Positions 469-1,713 of a stretch of DNA of 4,280 nt are shown one piece after another. The translations under genes and the position numbers were made by a program. Position 1 is the first letter of the stretch, and every line of letters begins with the position of its first letter. Under the pieces are notes generated by a model. It ran no database searches, was not told the origin of the DNA, and saw only the letters and a list, made by a program, of their open reading frames with translations. Source of the DNA: a virus (taxonomy: Duplodnaviria > Heunggongvirae > Uroviricota > Caudoviricetes); the IMG/VR virus record IMGVR_UViG_2711768167_000005, positions 1 to 4,280 of that record. One strand, written 5' to 3'.

Positions 469-882
469 TCAATCATCATTTTCTTCAATTGTTCTTCTTT
501 CATTGATGCCAGTGTTTACAGCCTGACAAGCTTGTTTAAGCACCCAGTCAACGGCGTCTTTCCATGCTCCCGTTTCAACTGGCGGATTTTCACGTTTAAC
601 CTGCTCATAGAAAGCTACGGCTTTAACCAATCCATTCGGCGCTGGCGGGACGGCGTAAAGGGGAATCCCGCGTCTTCCATAAGAAAACTCGTTATGACCG
701 TTATATTCACGACCATCTTCGTCATCACACATCCACGCCACCGGTTCCGCTTCCAGCGATGCCAGTACAATCCGTGCCAGTTCTTCCGCTTCTTCTGCTG
801 GCAGTACAACGTTGCTACCCGGTCCGTATGTTTCGCGCCACTGCTTGATTGTCAGCAGTCGCTCTTTGGTTATAGTGGTCAT
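469..882 (-). CDS. Hypothetical prophage-type protein (137 aa); paralog A1 sharing its N-terminal 47 aa with the 1315..1713 product
   Basis: ATG at 882..880 and TGA at 471..469. GAGG upstream overlaps the stop of the preceding gene. The N-terminus MTTITKERLLTIKQWRETYGPGSNVVLPAEEAEELARI is near-identical to that of the 132-aa protein; the C-terminus is unrelated. Confidence 0.65.
   Translation of the reverse strand: MTTITKERLLTIKQWRETYGPGSNVVLPAEEAEELARIVLASLEAEPVAWMCDDEDGREYNGHNEFSYGRRGIPLYAVPPAPNGLVKAVAFYEQVKRENPPVETGAWKDAVDWVLKQACQAVNTGINERRTIEENDD
741..882. repeat. Direct repeat copy 1 (142 bp, about 93% identical to 1572..1713)
   Basis: Manual alignment at an offset of 831 bp gave 10 mismatches in 142 bp. 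Covers the 5' end (first 47 codons) of the 137-aa gene. Confidence 0.85.
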
Positions 883-892
883 TTCTTATGCC

Positions 893-1090
893 TCAATACA
901 CAAAATCTGTTTTAAATTCATGGTTACATTCTGGACAGCATGTTTCGTAACCTTTTATTTCTTCACATGCCTGTTTTGCTCCAGAAAATTCCCAGAAATC
1001 TGGATCACAAAGCAGATCGAAATTGTGACCGCATTTTGGGCATTCGGTATCAAGTGACAGATTCCAGTAAGCAGTGGTGTTTTTATCCAT
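893..1090 (-). CDS. Small C4 zinc-ribbon protein (65 aa)
   Basis: Start trimmed from the track ORF 893..1132 to the ATG at 1090..1088, which follows the upstream TGA (1094..1092) by 1 nt and is preceded by AAAGGAG. Motifs C17-P-K-C20 and C52-P-E-C55 (CxxC...CxxC). TGA at 895..893. Confidence 0.55.
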   Translation of the reverse strand: MDKNTTAYWNLSLDTECPKCGHNFDLLCDPDFWEFSGAKQACEEIKGYETCCPECNHEFKTDFVY

Positions 1091-1091
1091 A

Positions 1092-1313
1092 TCAGTCTCC
1101 TTTACCCGCTGCTTTCTCCTGCTCTTTAGCAAGCCGCTCCGCTTCTCTGAAATCCCAATCCACTCGATGTGCTATATCAATTGCAGAACGCACGGTCCGT
1201 TCAATTAGCGTGTCCAGATTATCAATTGTCATTGCCATATCTGGATTGCGAGATAAAATCTCCGCCCTCTGAATCTGCCAGTTGTTGCAGGTTTCAAGTA
1301 ACGAGTTAGCCAT
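1092..1313 (-). CDS. Hypothetical small charged protein (73 aa), predicted helical
   Basis: Start trimmed from the track ORF 1092..1523 to the ATG at 1313..1311, preceded by AAAGGAAAG and separated by 1 nt from the upstream stop (1317..1315). The longer N-terminal extension would overlap the 132-aa gene out of frame. Confidence 0.55.
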   Translation of the reverse strand: MANSLLETCNNWQIQRAEILSRNPDMAMTIDNLDTLIERTVRSAIDIAHRVDWDFREAERLAKEQEKAAGKGD

Positions 1314-1314
1314 A

Positions 1315-1713
1315 TCACTTTCCTTTTCCCTGAAGCATTGCGGCGCGACAGGCATTCCAGCCTGTCGCGTATGCAGCTGCTTTGCTACTGCCTCCAACAG
1401 GCGCATCCTGCCAATACATTTCTTCTGGCACTGACGGCACTGACGCCCCAGACAGCAAAGCCTCAGCCATACACATTGCTTCCAGTCCTGTAGCCTCAGC
1501 AATACCGTCACGAATAAGCTCAAGCCCCTCTTTTGTTAACAGTTTCATTCCTTTATACATGACGGGCACCAGCGGTTCTGCTTCCAGCAATGCCAGTGCA
1601 ATTCGTGCCAGTTCTTCCGCTTCTTCTGCTGGCAATACAACGTTGCTACCAGGTCCGTATGTTTCGCGCCACTGCTGGATTGTCAGCAGTCGCTCTTTGG
1701 TAATAGTGATCAT
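1315..1713 (-). CDS. Hypothetical prophage-type protein (132 aa); paralog A2
   Basis: ATG at 1713..1711 in an ATGA overlap with the stop of the upstream nuclease-fold gene (1712..1710). N-terminal 47 aa are near-identical to the 137-aa protein; the C-terminus is distinct and ends ...GWNACRAAMLQGKGK. Confidence 0.65.
   Translation of the reverse strand: MITITKERLLTIQQWRETYGPGSNVVLPAEEAEELARIALALLEAEPLVPVMYKGMKLLTKEGLELIRDGIAEATGLEAMCMAEALLSGASVPSVPEEMYWQDAPVGGSSKAAAYATGWNACRAAMLQGKGK
1572..1713. repeat. Direct repeat copy 2 (142 bp, about 93% identical to 741..882)
   Basis: Same manual alignment as for 741..882. Covers the 5' end of the 132-aa gene. Confidence 0.85.

Follow-up and report, generated by a model that had tools for sequence, protein, structure and literature searches.

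Why should two genes lying side by side in one locus begin with almost the same 145 nucleotides and then have nothing further in common? We address this question for a stretch of 4,280 nucleotides, positions 1 to 4,280 of the IMG/VR virus record IMGVR_UViG_2711768167_000005 (the window), in which two genes, here called A and B and encoding proteins of 137 and 132 residues, carry a direct repeat at their 5' ends. Based on repeat and homology searches, comparisons to complete genomes and structure prediction, we propose that the repeat in all probability represents two copies of the coding sequence for a module of 47-48 residues, which heads a mosaic family of lambdoid and P22-like early proteins and is exchanged by homologous recombination. 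The repeat copies and the two genes are arranged as follows.

738..882, minus strand: repeat copy A, codons 1-48 of gene A, encoding the N-terminal (N) module MTTITKERLLTIKQWRETYGPGSNVVLPAEEAEELARIVLASLEAEPV; from repeat search, blastn and translation
1569..1713, minus strand: repeat copy B, codons 1-48 of gene B, encoding the N module with 43 of 48 residues identical to copy A
469..882, minus strand: gene A, 137 aa, composed of the N module, a beta-hairpin module ending PLYAVPPAP and a two-helix module; without DUF551
1315..1713, minus strand: gene B, 132 aa, composed of the N module and an EaA/DUF551-type middle region; ends before the DUF551 domain

The two copies constitute the single direct-repeat family found in the window by repeat search, each 145 nt long, 93% identical and at a spacing of 831 nt. 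Aligned by blastn in a window-sized search space, they agree at 135 of 145 positions (93.1%) without gaps (E=4.8e-60), and the longest exact direct repeat of the window measures 31 nt, as compared to a mean of 11.6 nt and a maximum of 16 nt in 100 shuffles. Uninterrupted identity between the copies occurs in blocks of 31 nt (773-803), 25 nt (821-845) and 24 nt (847-870). Similarity has sharp limits, in that it begins with the start codons (882 and 1713) and breaks off after about 145 nt of coding sequence. Both copies are located on the minus strand, as are all long open reading frames (ORFs) of the window. The preliminary description of this DNA had placed the repeat at 741-882 and 1572-1713 with about 93% identity; it is indeed present there, its true extent being 3 nt longer in each copy, and the identity is not near background.

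Divergence downstream of the repeat, also part of that description, is complete. The proteins are identical at 43 of residues 1-48, with no BLASTP match beyond, and the downstream parts display no similarity in any reading-frame pair or as DNA, nothing better than E of about 0.1 being obtained, so the two C-termini are not frameshifted versions of one sequence. A remote homology of the C-terminal parts was also considered and rejected: the probability of 97.6% returned by hhalign for the raw trimmed alignments is an artefact, because chimeric proteins of N-Ac1-Bc2 architecture (N being the module, Ac and Bc the downstream parts of A and B) sat in the alignment of A, and after the sets had been cleaned by module BLAST the probability was 15.9% over 12 columns.

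The N module is widespread. When 15 billion proteins, reduced to a single representative for each 50%-identity cluster, were scanned in full with its 48 residues using HMMER, 577 representatives were identified at E<=0.001, 435 of them at E<=1e-10. The best 150 of the 577 are 81-98% identical over residues 1-48, belong to distinct clusters, range from 65 to 418 aa in length and are unlike each other downstream. Among the carriers MTTITKERLLTIKQWRETYGPGSNVVLPAEEAEELARIALASLEAEPV hardly varies; the sequences that come after it fall into dozens of unrelated types, and many of these close with a proline-rich linker of the PLYAAPPAPVVP type with further modules after it. In a Pfam census of 147 representatives, 41 contained DUF551, five a dATP/dGTP pyrophosphohydrolase domain, one DUF4752 and one Ead_Ea22, while about 100 contained none. 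Module BLAST of 239 close homologues assigned N-Ac to 98, N-Bc with a long tail to 74 and N-Bc to 37, alongside 15 N-Ac1-Bc2 chimeras with or without DUF551 and a few proteins in which Ac or Bc follows another N-terminus; such natural chimeras join sub-modules of both window proteins. The module shuffling suspected earlier hence receives strong support, with at least 577 clusters headed by the module, dozens of unrelated continuations and natural A/B sub-module chimeras. We note that the module is internal in four representatives, starting at residues 71-131 (P0330, P0349, P0354 and P0373), and that in P0373 the residues before it form an Ead/Ea22-type N-terminus that contains CxxC motifs and is similar to the 199-aa protein of the window; these internal modules suggest fusions of adjacent genes.

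At the DNA level, the module is present in 1175 of 5426 complete E. coli genomes, i.e. about one in five, at 1612 places, with up to seven per genome and 268 on plasmids. It also occurs in 275 PLSDB plasmids, mostly non-mobilizable and of approximately 95-100 kb, which are probably phage-plasmids, and in 200 phage records, namely Shiga toxin (Stx) phages and P22-like Salmonella phages, where the locus is annotated as EaA or DUF551. When 70 unique viral loci from IMG/VR were anchored at the start codon, mean pairwise identity was 94-99% over gene nucleotides 1-120 and 74% over nucleotides 121-150, with both flanks at background (median about 27-33%). The module is a sharply bounded DNA island of about 135 bp amid unrelated flanks. 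Its variable positions fall predominantly on third codon positions (28 of 48, with 11 each on first and second positions), and synonymous (pS) and non-synonymous (pN) variation amount to 0.146 and 0.024, respectively (pN/pS 0.17); the module is therefore conserved as a protein under purifying selection, from which the DNA identity of about 95% follows. Our literature search yielded no paper on this particular N-terminal module, on how widely it is distributed or on its recombination within a conjugative island.

The proteins that the module heads here can be placed through their relatives. Neither A nor B matches a Pfam-A family, including DUF551 (PF04448), even at E<=0.1, the Ead_Ea22 model PF13935 (hmmscan) or an NCBIfam family, and PADLOC returned no defence-system match for A, B or their neighbours. 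Significant hidden Markov model matches assign both to PHROG families, the functions of which are unassigned there: A to phrog_660 (3e-43, residues 1-129), phrog_60 (4.5e-30) and phrog_3323 (1.5e-18), and B to phrog_60 (1.3e-18), phrog_3323 (1.6e-16), phrog_660 (1e-14) and phrog_5117 (7e-12). From a collection of 5.8 billion proteins, 4365 relatives of A and 3281 of B were drawn. B aligns over its full length with the first approximately 130 residues of proteins of 207-225 aa, among them P0123 (92% identity) and P0124 (86%), of 207-211 aa and at 100% coverage. Many Pfam DUF551 proteins, bearing the names 'DUF551 domain-containing' or 'Eaa', share 60-64% identity with B at a coverage of 97-98%, and the relatives of B also include B-type forms of 121-142 aa. 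A has many full-length relatives of about 148 aa in E. coli and Salmonella, P0040 alone being found on 506 contigs, and is 63% identical at 98% coverage to P0059, a PF04448 protein of 230 aa, although DUF551 is found in few relatives of A. Matches to DUF551/EaA proteins are thus not confined to the 48-residue module, query coverage being 97-100%. Judged by these homologues, B is a protein of the EaA/DUF551 type whose sequence ends ahead of the DUF551 domain, and both A and B belong to the wider homology group of EaA/DUF551-type mosaic phage early proteins, without the DUF551 domain itself.

The question of how the repeat behaves leads to the genomic setting. Over 99% of its length, the window finds a counterpart of 99.4-99.5% identity in each of 25 complete E. 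coli chromosomes. In one of them, NZ_CP178648.1, PGAP annotates DUF2857, DUF2786, ParB, an SPI-7-type DnaB helicase and ParA on one flank of the segment, and the STY4528 and STY4534 replication proteins, a PFL_4669 family integrative conjugative element protein, topoisomerase III, SSB and PFGI-1-class PilL2 on the other, with a tRNA-Ser gene adjoining the element. Because SPI-7/PFGI-1-type backbone genes flank the segment, the context is, on its gene content, an SPI-7/PFGI-1-class integrative conjugative element of E. coli and not the prophage that had been presumed. The island holds a block of phage-type small genes, almost every small ORF having a PHROG match. The unit that separates the repeat copies comprises the following.

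883..1568, minus strand: unique part of the 831-bp unit, consisting of the zinc-ribbon gene, the 73-aa gene and the C-terminal coding part of gene B
893-1090, minus strand: zinc-ribbon gene, 65 aa
1092-1313, minus strand: 73-aa gene
1315-1568, minus strand: C-terminal coding part of gene B
821-845, copy A coordinates: inferred crossover interval in NZ_CP182371.1, an exact block of 25 nt
847-870, copy A coordinates: inferred crossover interval in NZ_CP123240.1 and three other genomes, an exact block of 24 nt

The contents of the unit match PHROG 4173 and PHROG 10585. Region 883-1568 occurs in one piece only in the 25 island genomes with two copies, and its genes occur singly beside module genes in many prophages and phage-plasmids. 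The cassette that recombination between the repeats was expected to delete or swap had been described as the 73-aa and zinc-ribbon genes; both are in the unit, which in addition holds the C-terminal coding part of the 132-aa gene.

Recombined copies were sought in the complete E. coli genomes using a synthetic junction query, in which window positions 440-882 were joined to 1714-2150. The query was found in one piece in five genomes, at 99.7% identity in NZ_CP182371.1 and at 98.1-98.2% in NZ_CP123240.1, NZ_CP159917.1, NZ_CP190018.1 and NZ_CP190349.1, whereas the 25 two-copy genomes match it in two pieces. These five carry the same island at the same site and with the same neighbours, without the 831-bp unit and with one hybrid repeat copy; region 883-1568 likewise has no match in the single-copy loci L002 and L003. 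The two copies differ at ten marker sites, and read from the 3' end of the gene towards the start codon the hybrids display the pattern aaaaaaabbb in NZ_CP182371.1 and aaabaaaabb in the other four, with no difference at any non-marker site in the five genomes. The hybrid gene accordingly combines the upstream region and first codons of B with the remainder of A, in two junction classes. RecA-dependent recombination requires uninterrupted identity of roughly at least 25 nt, and the blocks of 31, 25 and 24 nt shared by the copies are of this order, while the clean-mosaic natural junctions lie inside the repeat in all five genomes. Since A/B markers (767 and 846) are the only sites that distinguish the two classes, separate exchanges between existing copies are favoured. 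The proposal that recombination between the repeats yields a chimeric protein and removes the cassette has in this way found its natural counterparts, and the suggested survey for variants with breakpoints inside the repeat delivered five complete genomes and two crossover intervals, a result that fits deletion and insertion alike. The reciprocal junction, expected of cassette duplication, is absent as one piece from all complete E. coli genomes.

An independent tandem pair of module genes is present in the 97-kb phage-plasmid NZ_CP128972.1 (L089), at 1801-3809, in the order 171-aa gene, 124-aa module gene, 69-aa Cys-rich gene and 280-aa module gene ending in DUF551. The 124-aa gene there combines the second module of A with the last module of B and ends ...MLQGKGE.

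Gene borders in this locus are marked by a second conserved sequence, a 16-nt motif (AAGGARASTGATATGG) that occurs three times in the window, where none would be expected by chance.

1087..1102, minus strand: junction motif AAGGAGACTGATATGG, end of the 73-aa gene with its stop codon and start of the zinc-ribbon gene
1310..1325, minus strand: junction motif AAGGAAAGTGATATGG, last codons of gene B (GKGK) with the stop codon and start of the 73-aa gene
2222..2237, minus strand: junction motif AAGGAGAGTGATATGG, end of the 199-aa Ea22-like gene and start of the 171-aa gene

Within the motif, the final codons of one gene, K-G-(E/K/D), are followed by a TGA stop, a single base and the ATG of the next, and the ribosome-binding site lies inside the end of the preceding gene; the ...GKGK C-terminus of B is part of it. 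It is present in 77 of 89 fetched loci, and in viral loci it has the orientation of the genes and frequently coincides with the exact beginning of the module gene or of its immediate upstream neighbour. To us it looks like a conserved boundary sequence for translational coupling, and possibly for recombination.

Models of the two proteins were built using AlphaFold2 with alignments of 120 sequences. In that of A, with a mean predicted local distance difference test (pLDDT) score of 70.9, helices at residues 6-19 and 29-43 form the module, followed by a beta-hairpin (49-61), a strand (73-75) and two further helices (83-98 and 105-127). The module is therefore predicted to be a two-helix hairpin. 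Fold searches with the models were uninformative, and no solved relative was found; evidence for independent modules is much stronger from sequence than from structure. The module probably acts as a common adaptor, oligomerisation or docking piece for variable C-terminal modules, by analogy with Ea22 variants, in which a shared N-terminal segment and coiled coil are combined with unrelated C-termini. The idea of a common interaction or targeting domain, put forward in the preliminary description, is consistent with purifying selection and with the predicted helical hairpin.

Several observations weigh against our proposal. PGAP marks A and B as partial pseudogenes in near-identical genomes, tandem module pairs are not the norm, since only two of the 80 IMG/VR loci fetched with the module hold two copies, and the model of B reaches a pLDDT of only 50.5, although the same two module helices are predicted, with the module itself at only 55-75. 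Single-copy islands are moreover the more diverged ones, with right-flank identities to the window of 98.6-99.1% as compared to 99.96% for two-copy islands, and so could be ancestral; these flank identities fit deletion or insertion. The last point underlies an alternative that we regard as a serious contender, albeit with a somewhat less than even chance of being right, namely that the single-copy state, the 171-aa gene followed by an N-Ac gene, is ancestral and the apparent hybrid is the unsplit ancestor. At the same likelihood, a phage-derived segment would then have entered through homologous recombination in the N module, bringing along the C-terminal part of B, the genes for the 73-aa and zinc-ribbon proteins and the 5' portion of an N module. 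In agreement with this, the marker logic is symmetrical, aaaaaaabbb being compatible with either direction, and both the succession of zinc-ribbon gene and N-gene and that of 171-aa gene and N-gene are present, independently of each other, in numerous prophages and phage-plasmids, so that the two halves could stem from different phages. However, two classes differing only at 767 and 846 suit separate crossovers or conversions better than one ancestor, and no donor has been identified for a cassette that is found whole in the island only.

It is also conceivable, if unlikely, that A and B are decaying pseudogene remnants of longer EaA/DUF551 genes, carried passively, and that the repeat is functionless debris. 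PGAP calls both 'incomplete, missing C-terminus' and annotates only their first 45 codons, it calls neighbouring genes frameshifted or partial, neither gene has DUF551, and the model of B is poor. Yet both ORFs are intact and conserved in all 25 two-copy genomes, with good translation signals, gene A having a GAGG ribosome-binding site 8 nt upstream of its ATG and gene B a start that overlaps the stop of the upstream 171-aa gene (ATGA). Architectures of the same length recur in unrelated elements, i.e. the A-type proteins of about 148 aa and the B-type forms of 121-142 aa, the 124-aa phage-plasmid protein stops at the same kind of end, and the end of B coincides with the recurrent stop, ribosome-binding site and start of the junction motif rather than with a random truncation. 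On these grounds, decay is less likely than function of the genes. A DNA or RNA element in the first 145 nt, such as a promoter, a small RNA or a site-specific recombination site, would explain the very sharp onset of the identity island exactly at the start codon, but it seems highly improbable in view of the concentration of variation at third codon positions, the absence of an Rfam match in the module on either strand and of an exact Chi site in it, and the lack of inverted repeats or a recombinase gene flanking the cassette. The sole Rfam match, to a snoRNA in another part of the window (E=0.8), is due to chance, and one-mismatch Chi sites are not enriched in the repeat. Nor are the borders those of integron-like cassettes, which were looked for as inverted repeats at the cassette borders and as an integrase or recombinase gene in the window or among the annotated segment neighbours, without a find. 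Finally, a local tandem duplication of a single gene, with 3' parts that later diverged or shifted frame, would produce two same-strand copies 831 nt apart, but is refuted by the frame-pair and DNA comparisons and by the cleaned profile comparison, and each downstream part has its own large homologue set elsewhere; it retains practically no likelihood.

We hence return to the exchange of a coding module by homologous recombination, which we envisage as follows. Two module genes stand in tandem among phage-type small genes (Ead/Ea22-like and others) inside the conjugative element; the modules attached downstream of the N module differ between them, and neither gene extends into a DUF551 domain such as many relatives carry. 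Homologous recombination within the module would add or remove the 831-bp unit and yield chimeric genes, as suggested by the sister islands with a hybrid single copy and junctions inside the repeat at two places, and would likewise move downstream cassettes between prophages, phage-plasmids and the island. The machinery may be host RecA or phage Red/RecET-type systems, the latter often supplied by co-resident prophages. The module would present variable C-terminal modules as an adaptor or oligomeriser, and its conservation would supply the homology that drives cassette exchange. A bolder version, in which module and 16-nt motif together constitute a homology-based cassette-exchange system and the module docks hundreds of C-terminal effectors onto one partner in the host or element, being maintained both by that partner and as a recombination anchor, can be likened to polymorphic toxin architecture; we consider it rather doubtful.

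Directly upstream of gene B lies the gene that commonly accompanies the module.

1710..2225, minus strand: 171-aa gene, PHROG 9263 (E=8e-123), directly upstream of gene B

This gene, without a Pfam or NCBIfam family, typically precedes the module genes of prophages and phage-plasmids, the phage-plasmid described above (L089) included, and is kept beside the hybrid gene in the single-copy variants, as annotated in L002 and L003. Of its codons, only the first approximately 60 are annotated by PGAP, as 'frameshifted'. Two Ead/Ea22-like neighbours match PF13935, at 2227-2826 (4.6e-26) and 3031-3243 (4.6e-10), both on the minus strand, and their proteins of 199 and 70 aa constitute a second pair that shares an N-terminus (MS-IDYQ-LRE) and then diverges. 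The 199-aa protein has CxxC motifs and a C-terminal half with a Walker-A-like GFTGCGKS and weak APS-kinase/AAA matches; PGAP splits its gene into two pseudogene fragments, and sister islands have intact, different Ea22-like genes of 223 or 199 aa. A DUF2857 gene (3668-4246, minus strand) was confirmed by hmmscan at 5e-66, its start being overlapped by the stop of an 82-aa ORF that lies downstream of it (3423-3671, minus strand) that PGAP names ParE family toxin-like. As compared to NZ_CP178648.1, 21 of 22 mismatches of the window fall at 48-117, with long C runs, and positions 1-43 are unmatched; the cluster at window positions 1-120 probably reflects sequencing or assembly errors at the contig end, and ORFs there are unreliable. 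A 13-kb record nearly identical to the window (L006, IMGVR_UViG_2531839006_000011), with one mismatch in 883-1568 and 99.86% identity over 1714-3883, is also classed as viral in IMG/VR, whereas complete genomes put the segment inside the conjugative island; its viral call was probably triggered by the phage-type small genes.

Comparable arrangements are known from lambdoid phages. Variants of Ea22 from lambda and Stx phages share an N-terminal segment and a coiled coil and have unrelated C-terminal domains, one of them DUF551 (PMC10834534), and this intragenic mosaicism has been described explicitly (PMC10834534, PMC7093339), DUF551 being regarded as a portable domain. A and B resemble Ea22 as small accessory genes of the early-left or exo-xis type with a shared N-terminus and unrelated C-termini, and Ea22-like genes adjoin them; unlike Ea22, they lack PF13935, their module is another sequence and is predicted as a two-helix hairpin without a long coiled coil, and no pro-lysogenic or other phenotype is known for them. 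YfdS, a DUF551 protein of E. coli CPS-53, has been linked to loose phenotypes only (PMC4776307). Like the P22 EaA/DUF551 proteins (PF04448), B corresponds over its full length to the beginning of the longer members, and DUF551 is carried by 41 of the 147 representatives in the census; unlike them, A and B lack the domain, B stopping at the junction motif just before it, and most relatives of A are without it. Intragenic domain exchange in lambdoid early-left genes has been reported for Erf and for gp24 of phages L and P22 (PMC8022706), and pervasive lambdoid mosaicism by Juhala et al. 2000, as cited in PMC2629481. The locus shares with the Erf and gp24 exchange that one protein part is near-identical and the other unrelated between phages, and differs in that one short module is common to hundreds of partners and stands twice in one locus, so that exchange can be intramolecular and natural variants display its products. 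Conserved boundary or linker sequences were reportedly proposed to promote the exchange of lambdoid modules by Clark et al. in 2001, for HK620. The 145-bp module and the 16-nt motif are similar to these as short conserved DNA at module borders amid unrelated DNA, but unlike intergenic linkers the module is itself part of a coding sequence, with selection acting on the protein.

In conclusion, the locus is an ordinary, clearly documented example of known phage gene mosaicism and not a new kind, and fits both established lambdoid mosaicism and the mosaic picture of Ea22. It shows the substrate of mosaicism via short coding modules, i.e. two copies, together with its products, hybrid single copies with mapped crossover intervals. 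It also corrects a habit of annotation, in which genes are called partial pseudogenes since only the module matches reference proteins. Should the module prove to be a common docking or oligomerisation piece, hundreds of early phage proteins that lack characterisation would become approachable together.

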